DNA from: a virus
Taxonomy: Duplodnaviria > Caudoviricetes
Reading direction: 5' to 3' (one strand)
IMG/VR virus record: IMGVR_UViG_3300012924_000011
Span: 1 to 55,283 of that record
Length of the DNA: 55,283 nucleotides
A model generated the notes under the pieces. The model saw nothing but the letters and a program-made list of their open reading frames with translations, did not search any database and had not been told where the DNA came from. Each line of letters opens with the position of its first letter. Within the stretch, counting starts at the first letter, position 1. The translations under genes were made by a program, and so were the position numbers. This document shows positions 15,708-55,283 of the stretch, in pieces.

Positions 15708-15943
15708 GCCTTGTCACCACGATCGGCCATAGCGAGCATGATCAAACATGCATCCCAATGAGTAGCGGCCTTGTAAACAAATTGGCCACCGATCACGTCG
15801 CGACTGTGACGCATCAATCGATCATCGCTTGCGTAATAATCACCAAGTGGCAAGGTCGCTGCGATTTTTGCGGCGCGTTTTTCACGATGTTCGCGATCCA
15901 TGCGAATATGGTCAAGTGTGGTCATCGTCATCGTATCATCCAA
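15704..15943 (-). CDS. Hypothetical protein
   Basis: Overlaps both neighbours in a coupled chain. Confidence 0.55.
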   Translation of the reverse strand: MDDTMTMTTLDHIRMDREHREKRAAKIAATLPLGDYYASDDRLMRHSRDVIGGQFVYKAATHWDACLIMLAMADRGDKA

Positions 15944-18200
15944 TTATCAGTTTTTTCGCCTCTCCGACGTACCAATCATGATTCACGTTGTCAAATCGGA
16001 ATGATCGCGCATCGTTACATTCGGCAATTTTCCAACCGGCTTGAATGGCGGTTTCGGTGTTGCCATATTTCGTCTTGCTCTTCGTGCAAACGCGTTCGTC
16101 CCATATGCCACCTGTTTCGCCCATTACCCGGTCATATTCCGCCTTGGTGATCCGTGGTGCTCGCTTCCATTCGCCGATATTGTGCCCGGCTGGTGGTGGT
16201 CGCACGATGGTCATGTTGCTACCGTTGGTCGCGACGTAATAACGCGTGGTGCCTTGAATGGGGATGCCGCCTAGCAATAGTTGCGCACTGCGATCAGCCT
16301 TCACCCGACACATGAAGTCGAACGGATCGCTATGGGCGCGAATGAACGTGTCGGGATCGATCCCTTGCACCATGGCAGCGACGGCTGCACGCTGGACGAC
16401 CACCGGGTTGAAATCCTTGTACCAGCACGGCGGCGACGCATTGCTGATGCTGTTCGCGTAATCGAGTGGATCAGGATGCCAATAAGCGCCCTTTTGCTTC
16501 AACTTCGCCGGACCGTTGGCTTTGATAATGATCGGATCACAATGGCATCGTTCAGGTGCGCAATGACAGACAAGATCGCGACCCTTTAGTTTGGCCACGT
16601 CCAATGTCGGTAATATCTCTCGTTCAAAGCGATCGCATACTAGATCACGATCGCCGTGTTGGCCGATAATGAACGGATTACCGTAAGGTGATCCACGCCC
16701 GCAATATATTGCGTCATCCGGGGCAGTTCCCGCTCGTATATTGTGTACTCGCGGTAATGTTCCCTCCGCGACATAGTTATTTACGTCTCTAATCCACATT
16801 CTACGATATTCGGCATATTCAAGCTTGAGGCATGTGTAATCCTGCCATTGCCGTTCAATCTCGCGTGCGTGTTCGATCATCGTATTGTGAATGCGATAGG
16901 TGATACCGTCCGTGTTAACCTGTATCATTTGCAGCGTCGGGACGGTTGCCAATCGTTCTGCCAACATGCAAATCATCAACTGCCCATTGATAGGAATGGT
17001 CATCGCATATTTCGGGTCAAGGAATACGCTATGCTTGTTGTTCGATTGCCCCCATGGGCCATTATTGGCGAGTTTCAGTGATGCATTTTCCATTGTTCCC
17101 TTGGCGTATAAATCGCGTTCGGCACTTATTTGAGGATAAGCTATTCTGAATGCATCGCCCAAATGTTCGGGTGCCAATCCGTTGACTTGCGATATGCTAG
17201 GATACAGCGCTTTCACATCAATGTCGTGAATTTCCCAACCATCACCAGCGGCGAAACGCTGGCGTTCAACAGACGCGTGCATGCCGCCCGTACCGAACAC
17301 GAAGGTCAACCCGCCGACGTTCGCGGTGACGCCGGTAAAGACGCCTTTGGTCTTGATCGACGCATCGGGATCGTCAAGGTCATCGGGCGTTAAGATTTGC
17401 CCGCACATGAAGTCTAGGATACGTTGGAATTCGGGATGCGTGAAGTGGATATATGGAAAAATGATATCTGCCAGTGCAATCCGATATCGTGGCGTTTGGC
17501 GCTTTGCCTTTCGCCCTGATGATCGATCATAGCACACGTCGTCACCAAGACGTTCTTCAAACATCTTGGCACCGATTTTCACGTCATTGTAATTGAGCGG
17601 TTCAAGCGGGTGTGTACCAAGCTTGCCGATTAGCCCAATGCGGAAGTTGATTGCGGGTAATGAATAGTGCGCAAATCGCTTGGTTTCGATCACGTCATTG
17701 ACATTGTAATCGATTAGCATCTGGACGTTTTGTGCGCCGACCGGTTGCCCGAATGGAAGCGGGCAATCCATCACATTCGGCGCGCGCATATTGATTTCAA
17801 GCGCTTTGAGACTGGTGCCTTTCGCCTTGTTATCAAAGTGATGGATACTGAACAAATCAATTTGCGGCGTGAACCGATCCCGTTCCCAAATGACGTTCGA
17901 CCAATCGTGAAAATTGTCGGCTAGCGCTCGCGATCGTTCATATATCTGTTCGACAGTCGTGTTAGGATGGGTGAAGATGTAGTGCAGCAATGGATAATCG
18001 AATTTCAGGTTGAAAAACCCGATCATTGGTGTTTGTGTTGATTGCAACCATGTAAGCCATTGCATTAGCGCAAAACGATCGTCCCGATAATGTGATATCT
18101 CCCATGTCGAACGCACGTCGCTATGAAGCATTTCCGCCGTAAGGGTGAAAATGTCAGGAAACGTTTCGCAGTCATAACAAACGGCGTTCGACAGGTCCAT
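15936..18200 (-). CDS. DNA polymerase (family B-like) with 3'-5' exonuclease and an inserted DUF4326-like domain
   Basis: Exonuclease YDCE, FN..FD, YN.ND; polymerase D.DV..LYP, KL..NG.WG, NTDG, RDVNNY, K.KG. Confidence 0.92.
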   Translation of the reverse strand: MDLSNAVCYDCETFPDIFTLTAEMLHSDVRSTWEISHYRDDRFALMQWLTWLQSTQTPMIGFFNLKFDYPLLHYIFTHPNTTVEQIYERSRALADNFHDWSNVIWERDRFTPQIDLFSIHHFDNKAKGTSLKALEINMRAPNVMDCPLPFGQPVGAQNVQMLIDYNVNDVIETKRFAHYSLPAINFRIGLIGKLGTHPLEPLNYNDVKIGAKMFEERLGDDVCYDRSSGRKAKRQTPRYRIALADIIFPYIHFTHPEFQRILDFMCGQILTPDDLDDPDASIKTKGVFTGVTANVGGLTFVFGTGGMHASVERQRFAAGDGWEIHDIDVKALYPSISQVNGLAPEHLGDAFRIAYPQISAERDLYAKGTMENASLKLANNGPWGQSNNKHSVFLDPKYAMTIPINGQLMICMLAERLATVPTLQMIQVNTDGITYRIHNTMIEHAREIERQWQDYTCLKLEYAEYRRMWIRDVNNYVAEGTLPRVHNIRAGTAPDDAIYCGRGSPYGNPFIIGQHGDRDLVCDRFEREILPTLDVAKLKGRDLVCHCAPERCHCDPIIIKANGPAKLKQKGAYWHPDPLDYANSISNASPPCWYKDFNPVVVQRAAVAAMVQGIDPDTFIRAHSDPFDFMCRVKADRSAQLLLGGIPIQGTTRYYVATNGSNMTIVRPPPAGHNIGEWKRAPRITKAEYDRVMGETGGIWDERVCTKSKTKYGNTETAIQAGWKIAECNDARSFRFDNVNHDWYVGEAKKLIIG

Positions 18201-18410
18201 TTAGTATCGCCCGCCTTCCGCGCATTCATCGATGCGCGGCGGTTCATGGATTTTGAAATGTGCACGCACAATCGTAATCGCTCGATTGTACGCGTAAGCA
18301 CGCCCGCGTGCCAATGCTCTACCGGTTTCGGTGGTGAAGATCACCGCTTCATTTGCAGCAAATGCGCGGTTGTTTTCAAGCTTTGCGATCAGTTCATTCA
18401 CGTCATCCAT
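18201..18410 (-). CDS. Hypothetical protein
   Basis: 69-aa ORF with AAGGA SD, abuts the polymerase start. Confidence 0.6.
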   Translation of the reverse strand: MDDVNELIAKLENNRAFAANEAVIFTTETGRALARGRAYAYNRAITIVRAHFKIHEPPRIDECAEGGRY

Positions 18411-18538: not shown

Positions 18539-19549
18539 TTATCGAGGGGGCATCATACCCGGCTGCATCGGTTGAGGCTGCGGCGCGTATTGGGGTTGCA
18601 TGGCAGGCTGCGCCGGTGCCATCATCGGTTGACCGGGTGGCGGTGCATACTGCGGCTGCATGACAGGTTGAGGCGCATAGCCCGGCTGTGGCGCGTACTG
18701 CGGTTGACCAGCATTGGCGACGAAATCCGGCGCGGGGGCAGGCAAGCCGGGCTGCGCCGGTGCCATCATTTGAGGCTGTTGATAGACCGGGGCGGGCTGC
18801 ATGACCGGTTGAGGCGCATAGACGGACGCAGGGGCCGCATAGCCCGGCTGTGGCGCGTATTGCGGTTGACCGGGTTGCATGCCCATGCCGGGCATCCCGA
18901 CGCCGCCCGGTTGACCGATCGGTGTAGCGCTCGCACCGGCCGGAAGCTGATGCTGTTGCCCCTTGAACATCGTCATGGGATCGGCACCACCTTGTGCGAT
19001 GATTTCGGTTCCATAACCGACGAAATCGACGCCTTCCGGATTGATGTAAAGGCTTGGTGTTTCGGTGCGATCGGTCGGGACGTTGACCTTGCACGTTGCG
19101 CCGATCGATACGTAATCGCCGGTCCTGATCGCATCGGCGGGCAATTGATTGTACTTCGTGCCGTCCCATTTGAACAGGCCGGGTGCCTTCAACTCTGTGC
19201 CATATGTCAAAACATAGCAACCGGCATAACCCTCGCGAAGGTTATAAGGTTTGCCCTGATCATCAAGGCCGTCGCCATCGACATATTTCCACGCGAACTT
19301 CGGCGGTGTGGTCGGTTGACCGTTTGATTGTGCTGTTGCTGGATAGGCGGTTGCGGCCTCTTGGCAAAGAACAGGCCAGATATATTGTTGAAACGTCGCT
19401 TTGTCATACGCGACGCCAAACGTCCAAGCTTGGCGCGGTTGACCTTGTGTGTTCAACTTCGGTTGCTTGGTGTTGCGGTCGGTAACGGCGCGGGGCTTCA
19501 AAGGATGCCCCCAAACCAAACGACCAACGGGTGCCGTAAATTCAATCAT
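18539..19549 (-). CDS. Single-stranded DNA-binding protein with a long Pro/Gln-rich tail
   Basis: PVGRLVWG...DGD...REGYAG...I..GDYV......LYINP..V.FVGYG.EI pattern of phage SSBs; AGGAG SD; lies between the Cas4-like nuclease and polymerase. Confidence 0.75.
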   Translation of the reverse strand: MIEFTAPVGRLVWGHPLKPRAVTDRNTKQPKLNTQGQPRQAWTFGVAYDKATFQQYIWPVLCQEAATAYPATAQSNGQPTTPPKFAWKYVDGDGLDDQGKPYNLREGYAGCYVLTYGTELKAPGLFKWDGTKYNQLPADAIRTGDYVSIGATCKVNVPTDRTETPSLYINPEGVDFVGYGTEIIAQGGADPMTMFKGQQHQLPAGASATPIGQPGGVGMPGMGMQPGQPQYAPQPGYAAPASVYAPQPVMQPAPVYQQPQMMAPAQPGLPAPAPDFVANAGQPQYAPQPGYAPQPVMQPQYAPPPGQPMMAPAQPAMQPQYAPQPQPMQPGMMPPR

Positions 19550-19550
19550 G

Positions 19551-20630
19551 TCAGTTGCTCCTATTGAACAGTTTTTGAGCACGCTTGTCAGCGCTAGCAC
19601 GCACCAGCTTGACACCGGTGATCGGGCGTTCAGTCAGCGCATCGAAAACAGCTTGCGAGCCGCCCCGGCGCTTGAATTCAGCGGGCGTGATCATGCCCGG
19701 CTTGGTGCAGTCGATCCCGCTCGCTATGGTCAATGCGGTTGATGTTATACCTGCCTTGAAACGTGTGTTGGCATATTGCGTCTCTGCGCCATAGCCGGGG
19801 ATCACCGCGCCGCTCTTCAATCGATATGCTGCCATTTCCTCAAGGGCGGTCAATCTGGACGATAGCGTTGCTTGCGCGGTGCGCAGCGTATCCAGTTCGA
19901 AGGCGACAACATCGTTGGTCAATTCGTCGCTGAATTGCAATGTGGTCGCATCGATCGCATTCATGCTTGCCGCGCGCGCTGCCGGGCAACTGGCGAGCGC
20001 ATGGCATCGGCGGCACCACGCAAGCCCGGTGCGCAACTCATCCGTTGGATTGGAAAGCGTTTGATCGATTTGACGATAGTAATCCATCAACTCGAAATAA
20101 CTGATCCGCCATTCACGAACTTTGCCGTCCGAATGGTGCGGTCGTGGTTGATGAATGCGAAGAACGATGTTGGCAGCGCTGGTACCGCTCGCGATCAATG
20201 TGCCAATGGCATGGGCGATCAACGTCCAATTCATTTCAGGCTCAACAGGTGTCCAACCATATTTGAAATCATCAATGGTCAACGTATCGGTCGTCGGGTC
20301 AAACTTGCGATGATCGCAGCGCGCTCGTACTTCCCATGTCGATCCTGCAAATGACGTATCGACTTCCATTTCGCCGCAGTCGAGCGACATTAAATAATTA
20401 TAGACATGATCCGCCATTTCAGCGGTCATGATCACGCCGTTAGTATGTTTCATGTTGATCAGTGAATTTAGATCAGCGCCATTGAATGCGGTTGTCGCCA
20501 TCCAATGGGCAGCGATGCCTTCATCACGACCGATTTGTTCGATCGTCTCGCGTGGAAACGCTGCCACCATGTTGCGACTACCGTTGCAATTCATCAATCG
20601 TGGCAAATTGTCAGCGGTAATCGTAAGCAT
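19551..20630 (-). CDS. Cas4-like PD-(D/E)xK exonuclease (DUF2800-like)
   Basis: C.GS, EG..AH, D...DDFKYG, IHQPR, C..C.....CP motifs. Confidence 0.85.
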   Translation of the reverse strand: MLTITADNLPRLMNCNGSRNMVAAFPRETIEQIGRDEGIAAHWMATTAFNGADLNSLINMKHTNGVIMTAEMADHVYNYLMSLDCGEMEVDTSFAGSTWEVRARCDHRKFDPTTDTLTIDDFKYGWTPVEPEMNWTLIAHAIGTLIASGTSAANIVLRIHQPRPHHSDGKVREWRISYFELMDYYRQIDQTLSNPTDELRTGLAWCRRCHALASCPAARAASMNAIDATTLQFSDELTNDVVAFELDTLRTAQATLSSRLTALEEMAAYRLKSGAVIPGYGAETQYANTRFKAGITSTALTIASGIDCTKPGMITPAEFKRRGGSQAVFDALTERPITGVKLVRASADKRAQKLFNRSN

Positions 20631-47041: not shown

Positions 47042-47677
47042 ATGGATTGGATCACGATTAAACCCTATCTTTACCGATGGGGGCACATGATGGATCGTTG
47101 TTATGATCCTGATCATCCGATGTTTCCCCGTTATGGTGGACGCGGTATAAAAGTTTGCGACGAATGGCATAATTTTGCCACATATGCGGTTCAATTGCCT
47201 GCCGGTTACTTTGATAAGGCGCACCTTGATCGCATTGATAATGATGGCGATTACGAGCCGCAAAACGTTCGTTGGGTTTCAGCGTTAGAAAATCATAATA
47301 ATCGAGCCGATCATTTTCGAATTGAATATGATGGGAGAACGCAAAACCTTTCACAATGGGCACGTGAATTGAATATCAACATCGCAACGCTTCATACTCG
47401 CTTGGCCGTGTGGGATTGGCCTGTTGAACGTGCTTTTGAAACACCGCCGTTAGATGCTGCACAACGAATGTTAGTCGCGCGAACGAAGCGATATGAAGGG
47501 CACGTTAAGAAAATCAATTTAACATCAAGGACGCATCGCAAAGTTATCTATGACGGTCGAATGGTGACGTTGACTGAATTGTCTAAAATTTGCGGTGTAT
47601 CCGTAAAACTGCTCTATAAGCGGATATTCGAAAGGGGATGGCCCATCGAAAAAGCCGTTATCATCAATAAAACCTAA
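47042..47677 (+). CDS. Free-standing HNH homing endonuclease
   Basis: W..M..RC......YGGRGI.VC.EW..F...LDRIDNDG.YEP.N.RW.....N.NN; two C-terminal repeated DNA-binding modules; AT-richer than flanks. Confidence 0.9.
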   Translation: MDWITIKPYLYRWGHMMDRCYDPDHPMFPRYGGRGIKVCDEWHNFATYAVQLPAGYFDKAHLDRIDNDGDYEPQNVRWVSALENHNNRADHFRIEYDGRTQNLSQWARELNINIATLHTRLAVWDWPVERAFETPPLDAAQRMLVARTKRYEGHVKKINLTSRTHRKVIYDGRMVTLTELSKICGVSVKLLYKRIFERGWPIEKAVIINKT

Positions 47678-54144: not shown

Positions 54145-54173
54145 GCTCTAATGGTCATTGCGACGGTCGTCAA
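54145..54173 (-). promoter_or_regulatory. Repeated early promoter, copy 9
   Basis: TTGACG-accgtcgcaatgaccat-TAGAGC. Confidence 0.8.
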
Positions 54174-55249
54174 GCGTTGATTTTATCGCGGTCCTTGCCG
54201 TTCATTCCCTTAAAGAGATAAATCTCTTCCACAACATCCCAATCGATCCCGATGGACAATGCCGCTGCGCCCATGGCGATTGCGCGGGTGCTGACTACGT
54301 GACGAATGTGTTTGTCGTTGACGATCTTGCGCACTTCCCAAACGCGTTCAAGCCATCGGTCATTTGACCCGGCGAACATGCGTTCAAGGTTCAGGTCATA
54401 GCCAACGTCAATCACTGCGAAACGATCGAGACTAGCCGCGTCCAATTCGTTGCGCCCGACATAGAGACGATCAGCCCCGGTGCCGAATGTATTGGCGGTG
54501 GCGATCATCCTGAAATCAGGATGGCGCATGATCGGTGCAGGCATATCGGGAAAGTTGCAATATCCATTGGCAAGCGCGCTATTTGCGGCAAGCAAGGCGT
54601 TTGCGTCCCACGCGTCGATTTCATCGGCGATCCATACGCCCCCTTTTTCATAAGCGTGACGAAACGGCGTATCATGATATTTGCCATGGCCATCAACGAA
54701 ACCGATCAGTTCATGCGTGTCATTGATGGTGCTGGTGATATAGAATTGTAATTGTAGCGCTAGGGCTGTGTGTTCGCCGATGGTCGTTTTGCCGCAACCG
54801 GCTGGACCAACCAACATGATCGCATGCCCGATGCTGGCAATTTTGATCACCAATTCGGTGCGATAATGAACCGTTGCATTGATCATCACCGATCCGCGCG
54901 GTGATAAAACTTCAAGCTGGCGTGGCGGGATCGCAGTAATCAATGCGTGACATTCTTCACGCGCGAGATAGCGCACCAATTCTTCATCGGGGAACCGCCC
55001 CTGTGGCATGGCCGCCAAGGTGTCCATGATCGCTTGTGCGGTCGCGCGCTGTACGTCTGAAGGGGTTTCCGGCCCGGCGCTGGCGTGATAGAGATTGGCA
55101 AGGTCAACCGCCGACATGGCGTGAACCGCGAGCGGATCATAGCCTGATATCAACGCCCATTCGGTCAGATAGGGCTTGTCATCCGGAACCATGATATAGG
55201 TGTGCGGATCGCCAAGGCGCTGATAGAGGAAATTGAGGCGGAGCGTCAT
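54170..55249 (-). CDS. MoxR/CbbQ-type AAA+ ATPase
   Basis: Walker A GPAGCGKT, Walker B IADEID, HPDFR.IATANT.G.G....Y.GRN.LDAA.LDRF, VSTR. Confidence 0.9.
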   Translation of the reverse strand: MTLRLNFLYQRLGDPHTYIMVPDDKPYLTEWALISGYDPLAVHAMSAVDLANLYHASAGPETPSDVQRATAQAIMDTLAAMPQGRFPDEELVRYLAREECHALITAIPPRQLEVLSPRGSVMINATVHYRTELVIKIASIGHAIMLVGPAGCGKTTIGEHTALALQLQFYITSTINDTHELIGFVDGHGKYHDTPFRHAYEKGGVWIADEIDAWDANALLAANSALANGYCNFPDMPAPIMRHPDFRMIATANTFGTGADRLYVGRNELDAASLDRFAVIDVGYDLNLERMFAGSNDRWLERVWEVRKIVNDKHIRHVVSTRAIAMGAAALSIGIDWDVVEEIYLFKGMNGKDRDKINA

Positions 55250-55283
55250 TGTGATCGCATAACCAATCACCAATACCGATGCA

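Follow-up and report, generated by a model that had tools for sequence, protein, structure and literature searches.

What is a complete small phage protein doing inside a DNA polymerase, and does it serve the enzyme that carries it? The question is raised by IMGVR_UViG_3300012924_000011, a Caudoviricetes record of the IMG/VR collection that was analysed over its full length of 55,283 nucleotides (hereafter, the window). The window holds a phage genome of ~55 kb, estimated by CheckV at 100% completeness; a PHROGs scan of 87 open reading frames (ORFs) shows structural genes of siphovirus type together with a replication module. Its family B DNA polymerase, P0001, contains in frame a domain of the DUF4326 family (PF14216), as an original prediction made from the nucleotide sequence had proposed. 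The domain lies at one exact site of the polymerase, very few related polymerases share it, and DUF4326 has been linked to DNA polymerases repeatedly and independently. On balance, we regard it as probable that the insert is a functional accessory module coupled to the polymerase: enzyme-like, dispensable and tethered to the replicase.

The identity of the domain rests on several lines of evidence. P0001 matches the Pfam model with 58.8 bits against a cut-off of 25, over model positions 7-80 of 82, and a six-frame search found one copy only in the genome (16527-16727, minus strand, 62.3 bits). The span first proposed, 16515-16755, falls inside the limits given in Table 1. Stand-alone DUF4326 homologues of 82-83 amino acids (aa) run from MPRV to KAN, and the insert is such a protein in its entirety from the second residue onwards, with about three linker residues on the N-terminal side and four on the C-terminal side. 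Free-standing genes, encoding proteins of 82-107 aa, are at least as close to it (72-75% identity) as the inserts of other polymerases described below. Modelled by itself with AlphaFold2 (AF2) from 118 homologues, the insert reaches a predicted local distance difference test score (pLDDT) of 96.3 and forms three short strands and two helices; 19 predicted viral DUF4326 structures in BFVD match this model at E <= 1e-3 (best template modelling score 0.94), and a check by structure prediction, suggested at the outset, thus comes out in favour of the assignment. Neither PADLOC nor NCBIfam has a match for the insert or for the whole of P0001.

Conservation within the family is concentrated in a few residues. 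Among 119 aligned DUF4326 members, N508, C545, P549 and C552 (P0001 numbering) are conserved in all, R518, C547 and H553 in 117, and R502 in 115; the invariants of the family are the Arg of GRGS, the Asn of GNPF, the Arg of G-x-R-D and the motif C-x-C-x-P-x-x-C-H. The insert retains every position that is conserved in at least 115 of the 119, and the same residues are kept in the two other inserts, which are 60-69% identical to that of the window.

Alignment with 13 relatives places the insert between RDVNNYVAE (residues 471-479) and LKQKGAYW, where the relatives have a five-residue turn with the consensus DTKGK; the net gain in P0001 is 82 residues. On our own reading, the old turn D-T-K/G-K would roughly have become G-T-L/domain/G-P-A-K. 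The original prediction had held that the two flanking polymerase motifs lie close together in related enzymes, and they do: in 151 of the 163 polymerases collected, the other 12 being without anchors recognizable by regular expression, the spacing from DVNNY to KxKGxY is 9 aa in 120, 16 aa in 22 and 7-15 aa in 6, and only 3 have a spacing of 88-91 aa, so a long segment is not general to the relatives. The second length class is a 12-residue Pro-rich turn of the type PVTPPGQNEPP (22 of 151; P0008, P0009, P0018 and 19 others), and the loop is thus variable even without DUF4326. The resuming strand itself is strongly constrained, K568 and G571 being invariant in an alignment of 102 sequences (A5) and K570 and Y573 invariant in one of 14 sequences (A1) and at least 90% conserved in A5. 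The model shows beta-strands on either side (460-472 and 475-480 before the insert, 567-570 after it), so the insert occupies a hairpin tip. Y476 may be the tyrosine of a KxY-type motif, in which case the insert would lie close to the primer strand, where palm and thumb meet; this location draws on pattern and position, the hidden Markov model alignment to the 9°N polymerase ending eight residues short of the site.

The same turn has been struck elsewhere. In Yersinia phage fEV-1 (LT992259.1, locus L005, 1462-4114) the polymerase is split into two ORFs exactly here, the first half ending just past RDVNNYIAV and the second beginning MKIKRKGAY. Between them lies a 191-aa ORF, annotated as hypothetical, with homing-endonuclease matches (phrog_314, E 4e-11; phrog_7168, E 1.4e-10). 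The split implies that the turn tolerates a break in the chain and that its conserved flanks attract homing elements.

In composition the insert is not uniformly distinct. It had been described as AT-richer than its surroundings, which is correct at third codon positions only, where its GC content (GC3) of 41.4%, against 56.7%, is lower than that of all 494 non-overlapping 87-codon windows of the gene; overall, its GC of 51.0% compares with 50.2% in the rest of the gene and the description fails.

Polymerases built in this way are rare. Two word-indexed searches of 5.8 billion protein clusters, centred on the junction, were followed through the best 120 of 1489 and the best 120 of 171 matches. 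Among the matches listed, only two other polymerases, P0002 (751 aa) and P0005 (a 430-aa fragment), carry DUF4326 in this position; one, P0013 (785 aa), has it at the N-terminus, and PF14216 is absent from the other 116 listed proteins of each search. The best 120 of 135 matches in a search among shorter proteins were all stand-alone DUF4326 proteins of 81-303 aa, none of which extends into the polymerase flanks. In a library of representatives at 50% identity, 0 of the 150 listed matches were of polymerase length and P0001 itself is not among them, a count that is uninformative on the number of insert-bearing polymerases, an insert-less polymerase presumably standing there for the cluster of P0001. 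All three inserts start with V-H-N and end with A-N-G-P and a basic residue, those of P0002 and P0005 have a three-residue deletion in common, and the three are 60-71% identical to one another, about as diverged as their hosts.

The recurrence of this layout at the same site in P0002 and P0005, on other contigs and from other sources, leads us to reject an error of assembly or gene calling, for instance a chimeric contig. The record is of metagenomic origin and the only run containing the stretch is probably its own source, which would leave room for such an error; the frame, however, is open across both junctions, one contig of that run covers the whole gene with no differences, and no contig skipping the insert occurs in the probable source run, where contigs only were covered and rare variants are not visible. 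An artefact is scarcely conceivable on this evidence.

An in-frame insertion in a conserved polymerase region is also the classic location of an intein, and an intein, intron or other removed element would leave a mature polymerase without the segment. The ends do not fit such an element, as had been recognized from the start: the insert opens with Gly (G480-T-L) and closes with K-A-N562-G-P-A-K566 before L567, the only Asn near the end preceding Gly; a His-Asn pair ahead of Cys, Ser or Thr is absent from this end. Pfam finds no Hint or intein family at E <= 1, and Rfam no intron or RNA family at E <= 1 over 15800-18400. What is found instead is an open, conserved and confidently folding domain, and 87 aa is far below the size of known mini-inteins. 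Removal of the segment is very improbable, and the intein or intron reading is close to refuted by the missing Hint family, splicing residues and Rfam match.

Other associations show DUF4326 joined to polymerases by more than one route. In the IMG/VR locus L076 (3956-6805), a 97-aa DUF4326 gene ends 1 nt ahead of the ATG at which a 677-aa polymerase of the same family, with the short turn, begins; a complex prediction for the two proteins scored 0.01 against a mark of 0.32 and is evidence neither way. Directly downstream in L076 is a 168-aa ORF of the endonuclease VII/HNH type (phrog_2633, E 4.7e-35). The N-terminal DUF4326 domain of P0013 is 82% identical to a free-standing gene, and that fusion is therefore probably a separate capture; P0013, known from one contig only, has an in-frame Met where the polymerase usually begins. 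Family A polymerases are involved as well: Sphingobium phage Lacusarx encodes one with an N-terminal DUF4326 domain, and such fusions were seen at 4 of the 40 IMG/VR loci that belong to the insert's DUF4326 subclade (Lacusarx being counted again among the four) and at 1 of 80 loci in bacterial genomes. Four further loci of the 40 have a polymerase ORF within 4 kb of DUF4326, and in about five more, primase or helicase genes abut it. Fusion or adjacency was seen in 4 of 6 phage records, chosen partly by annotation; in ten further phage records taken by rank, one per genus, an annotated DNA polymerase lies within 3 kb in three, a DprA-like gene in two and an RNA ligase gene in one.

The family at large is widespread, with 3357 representatives matching the insert at E <= 0.001 and a match in 559 phage records, and it is present in giant viruses, archaeal viruses and bacteria too. 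A scan of 30 longer DUF4326 proteins gave as fusion partners UDG, a 5'-3' exonuclease, a PIF1 helicase, a P-loop kinase, Macro and four SLOG-type domains, and further fusions, to NADAR and UDG, appeared in the search among shorter proteins (best 120 of 135). These partners agree with a published statement that DUF4326 forms fusions with Macro, with SLOG and with NADAR domains and with components of replication or restriction-modification systems (PMC7824862). That DUF4326 can be fused to replication proteins is already in the literature; the published passages on DUF4326 that were consulted describe no insertion within a polymerase. In general terms, then, the idea of an accessory activity tethered to the replisome has gained ground through the P0013 fusion, the abutting gene of L076 and the family A fusions.

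Three side observations concern the same family. At the IMG/VR locus L055 (3623-5080) a 486-aa frame joins an HNH-endonuclease-like piece, DUF4326 and an N4-like RNA polymerase piece, and may be either a three-part fusion or a read-through of adjacent genes. P0171 (352 aa) carries three DUF4326 domains in tandem (Pfam, three stretches, E 4.2e-60). Many RefSeq phage DUF4326 genes, encoding proteins of 82-92 aa, are labelled 'ribonucleotide reductase NrdA-like' (for example in NC_042013.1, NC_041929.1 and NC_042115.1), a label that is misleading at this size and that seems to go back to 'T4 NrdA.1-like protein', the name used earlier.

The enzyme that hosts the insert is a family B polymerase. 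PHROGs family phrog_1252 ('DNA polymerase') matches P0001 with E 5.6e-143 as two stretches that skip the middle, and the closest phage polymerases, those of Rhizobium phages RHph_X2_24 and P106B, are 54-55% identical to it. The full-length AF2 model, built with 102 relatives, has a mean pLDDT of 90.7, with the C-terminal part above 89, and matches archaeal PolB and pol alpha in Foldseek (E ~5e-13). When a profile of the 102 relatives is aligned to the 9°N polymerase, motifs A, B and C fall within its residues 400-586, where the corresponding motif types are DxxSLYPS, KxxxNxxYG and xTDG; the match is weak (whole-sequence E 0.0089). Pfam PF00136 does not match P0001 at E <= 1 and is on record for four of the polymerase relatives (P0080, P0148, P0153 and P0163), and phmmer finds nothing for P0001 among the PDB sequences at E <= 1. 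Four acidic residues, D10, E12, D68 and D169, hardly vary in alignment A5, and we read them as putative Exo I-III residues. A PHROGs scan of the 87 other ORFs found no second DNA polymerase in the genome, in which primase, helicase and exonucleases are present. Because the family-invariant motifs are all kept and this is the only DNA polymerase of the genome, the chimera must replicate the phage.

Motif C is an observation in its own right. Throughout this polymerase family it reads N-T-D-G, invariant in 102 sequences and with a single Asp (16905-16916, minus strand, residues 429-432); the usual motif C has two aspartates.

In the account that we favour, the whole of a small gene for DUF4326, codon 2 through to the last codons, would have been captured in frame at the tip of a beta-hairpin past motif C, at a site that tolerates change, given two other loop length classes and the chain break in fEV-1. 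The domain would fold independently and be held beside the DNA-binding cleft. We infer that the domain is catalytically active and that tethering gives an advantage; it might remove a phosphate or phosphoribosyl-type group from DNA ends, template lesions or ADP-ribose-derived adducts that block synthesis, the handling of ADP-ribosylated DNA having been raised as a possibility in the original prediction. This chemistry appears the likeliest because a rhodanese/Cys-phosphatase-like fold has been published for the family and because C545-X5-R551 forms a loop which, in the models, lies between a strand (543-545) and a helix (554-562), an arrangement as in Cys-phosphatases. An end- or adduct-cleaning activity of the Cys-phosphatase type is nonetheless put forward tentatively, as a possibility that falls short of even odds.

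Both the chemistry and the function of the insert have evidence weighing against them. In the full-length model, where only three sequences cover the insert, its pLDDT is 52-65. Foldseek finds nothing in the PDB for the domain model at E <= 0.001, and the DUF4326 profile has only a chance match, to a designed repeat protein, among PDB sequences. By title, 31 of the 42 PDB chains at Z >= 2 have the PTP/DUSP (Cys-phosphatase) fold; their Z-scores of 2.2-2.9 are below 3, and a Z below 8 may mean only a common arrangement. This structural echo agrees with the published superfamily assignment and is far too weak alone. That assignment, of DUF4326 to the rhodanese-phosphatase superfamily, has its supporting analysis cited as 'in preparation' (PMC9503650); the published passages on DUF4326 offer annotation or prediction only, with no biochemical activity, and no paper dedicated to DUF4326 was found in the literature on the rhodanese-phosphatase superfamily and biological conflicts.

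R551, the Arg of the C-X5-R loop, is conserved in only 65 of the 119 members, and because of this poor conservation a Cys3-His metal site has to be considered as an alternative to a catalytic loop. The insert would then be a non-catalytic Cys/His metal-binding module; by binding DNA, a signal derived from a nucleotide or a partner protein, it would regulate or anchor the polymerase. C545, C547, C552 and H553 are conserved in 117-119 of 119 members, far above the arginine, and in an exhaustive structural comparison the best PDB match, with Z 4.6 over 79-80 residues, is the C-terminal domain of RapZ, which binds ligands and RNA; fusions to SLOG-type domains, treated as nucleotide-sensing (PMC9503650), are frequent. 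The invariant Asn508 and the near-invariant Arg502 and Arg518, however, suggest a substrate pocket over a structural knot, and the published analysis, in its passages on the family, predicts an enzyme (PMC9503650; PMC7824862). A purely metal-binding role is on these grounds distinctly improbable.

The distribution of the domain adds to the evidence on the contrary side. P0003, the nearest relative of P0001 at 82% identity, has the empty turn. The end branch of the window's insert, at 0.44, exceeds the median of 0.23. No DUF4326 was found anywhere in five related phage records, two of them complete genomes, or at 24 loci of the polymerase family examined up to 10 kb on each side, several of which are duplicated between collections, while the positive controls were detected; the domain is dispensable for the polymerase family. 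Nor is DUF4326 polymerase-adjacent in 32 of 40 IMG/VR loci, 79 of 80 bacterial loci and 7 of the 10 ranked phage records.

The history of the site is correspondingly complex. When the first 60 of the 163 polymerases are placed in a tree without the insert columns, the three hosts fall into three separately supported clades, requiring at least three changes, and their monophyly is rejected by the approximately unbiased (AU) test (delta log-likelihood, lnL, 412; p-AU 8.6e-5). In the DUF4326 tree (83-93 columns), uniting the three inserts costs 8.6 lnL (p-AU 0.41), so that one origin is neither rejected nor demonstrated. The flanks follow P0003 and not P0002: residues 441-479 of P0001 are 82% identical to insert-less P0003 against 72% to insert-bearing P0002, and residues 567-600 are 94% against 74%. 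Compared at the protein level, the flanks show no sign of co-conversion; the nearest DNA, that of L016 (P0006) at 72% nucleotide identity, is too diverged for tracts or junction microhomology. With one origin or with two, the insert has been gained or lost precisely several times, which implies recombination within the conserved flanks.

Such a history could be that of a passenger, selfish or neutral, that landed in a permissive loop at a hot spot of recombination or homing and has no role in replication; it would move between alleles or be precisely lost through recombination in the flanks, perhaps aided by a trans-acting homing endonuclease whose target the insert disrupts. The scattered hosts, the clean empty site in the nearest relatives, the related phages without any DUF4326 and the homing-endonuclease ORF of fEV-1 in the same turn are all in keeping with this, and the low GC3 fits a foreign origin. 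Pfam and PHROGs, however, detect only DUF4326 families in the insert, with no nuclease or recombinase domain; the inserts have diverged like their hosts yet keep all invariant residues, where a functionless passenger should decay; site-specific selfish spread leaves the N-terminal, neighbour-gene and family A linkages unexplained; and the missing flank co-conversion, at the protein level, speaks against it. We consider a passenger without function unlikely, while granting it more weight than a metal-binding module.

A variant would combine mobility with function. The insert could be an intein-less and nuclease-less mobile in-frame gene that breaks an endonuclease site, and so confers immunity, is copied into empty alleles after the endonuclease of a co-infecting phage has cut them, and is still a working domain in the mature enzyme. 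Such a hitch-hiker would jointly explain the same site in three lineages, the empty sites in the nearest relatives, the foreign codon usage and the fEV-1 ORF; it is a speculative proposal to which we give little credence. The suggestion in the original prediction of a new kind of mobile in-frame domain is accordingly left half standing: the non-monophyletic hosts require movement or precise loss, and there is neither a nuclease nor protein-level co-conversion to go with it.

A functional module tethered to the replicase, to return to the reading preferred here, can be set beside several known systems. As a full-length member of DUF4326 (PF14216; PHROG 464; 'T4 NrdA.1-like') with the same predicted fold, the insert resembles its relatives in all but context: known members are stand-alone or terminal fusions, whereas this one lies inside the polymerase fold with both ends joined to a hairpin. 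The N-terminal fusions (Lacusarx PolA, the IMG/VR loci L041-L043 and P0013) likewise share a polypeptide with the polymerase and belong to the same DUF4326 subclade (56-72% identity). They can arise by loss of a stop codon; the insertion in the window, in contrast, is internal and predicted to lie beside the primer-binding region, which would fix the position of the domain. With inteins and homing-endonuclease insertions, including that of fEV-1, the insert has in common a sporadic, non-monophyletic presence at one exact conserved site of an essential gene, but it has no Hint domain, splicing residues or nuclease and, as far as sequence tells, is retained in the mature protein.

The thioredoxin-binding loop of T7 DNA polymerase and TPR1 and TPR2 of the phi29 enzyme are lineage-specific loop insertions that give new properties. 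Like the insert, they are extra surface-loop segments of the polymerase domain that are absent from relatives; unlike DUF4326, they are not independent, widespread, enzyme-like domains that exist as separate genes. Finally, the insert has in its models a strand, a Cys loop (C-X5-R) and a helix that may correspond to those of the PTP/DUSP and rhodanese folds, and it has a weak fold similarity to many DUSP/PTP chains; kinases, ligases, nucleases and polymerases occur as fusion partners or neighbours of DUF4326, which recalls end-healing enzymes such as polynucleotide kinase-phosphatase. Compared with the Cys-phosphatases, DUF4326 is far smaller (~80 aa), its similarity lies below any safe threshold, the family does not conserve the Arg throughout, and the activity is a predicted one.

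Table 1. Features of the polymerase gene P0001 and of its DUF4326 insert, in window positions.
Feature	Position	Strand	Evidence or remark
Family B DNA polymerase P0001, 754 aa	15936..18200	-	ORF, PHROGs, AF2/Foldseek
P0001 residues 1-479: putative exonuclease part and motifs A, B, C	16764..18200	-	ends in RDVNNYVAE (471-479)
Motif A DIDVKALYPS (326-335), motif B KLANNGPWG (376-384), motif C NTDG (429-432)		-	invariant columns, alignments A1 and A5
Insert G480-K566, 87 aa	16503..16763	-	alignments; phrog_464, E 2.6e-26
Pfam DUF4326 (PF14216) match, residues 492-557	16530..16727	-	E 8.5e-16
Cys-rich loop C545-H-C547-A-P549-E-R551-C552-H553	16542..16568	-	candidate active site (C-X5-R) or metal site
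Strand LKQKGAYW, residues 567-574	16479..16502	-	polymerase resumes directly past the insert
Polymerase C-terminal part, residues 575-754 and stop codon	15936..16478	-	phrog_15833 'DNA polymerase', E 1.5e-29 on residues 593-753

Elsewhere in the genome, a Gp2.5-like protein for single-stranded DNA binding and annealing is encoded just upstream of the polymerase (18539-19615, minus strand; phrog_7011, E 1.2e-53) and has a long, repetitive C-terminal tail rich in Pro, Gln, Tyr and Ala. A free-standing HNH endonuclease ORF among the head and connector genes (47042-47674, plus strand; phrog_3377, E 4.6e-55) may be a homing element of its own. A 367-aa ORF (54170-55273, minus strand) matches phrog_249, 'porphyrin biosynthesis', with E 1.3e-57 and, more weakly, an ATPase family, and would be an unusual auxiliary gene at this phage size.

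A chimera that places DUF4326 beside what is probably the primer-binding region is a strong 'Rosetta stone' clue to a family without demonstrated function. Together, the chimeric, adjacent-gene and N-terminal forms suggest that the substrate of DUF4326 is met at the replication fork. The polymerase of this phage also illustrates cleanly that an entire gene can live on inside an essential enzyme as one of its domains, at a position which mobile elements use too, and it bears on how polymerases may gain accessory functions.

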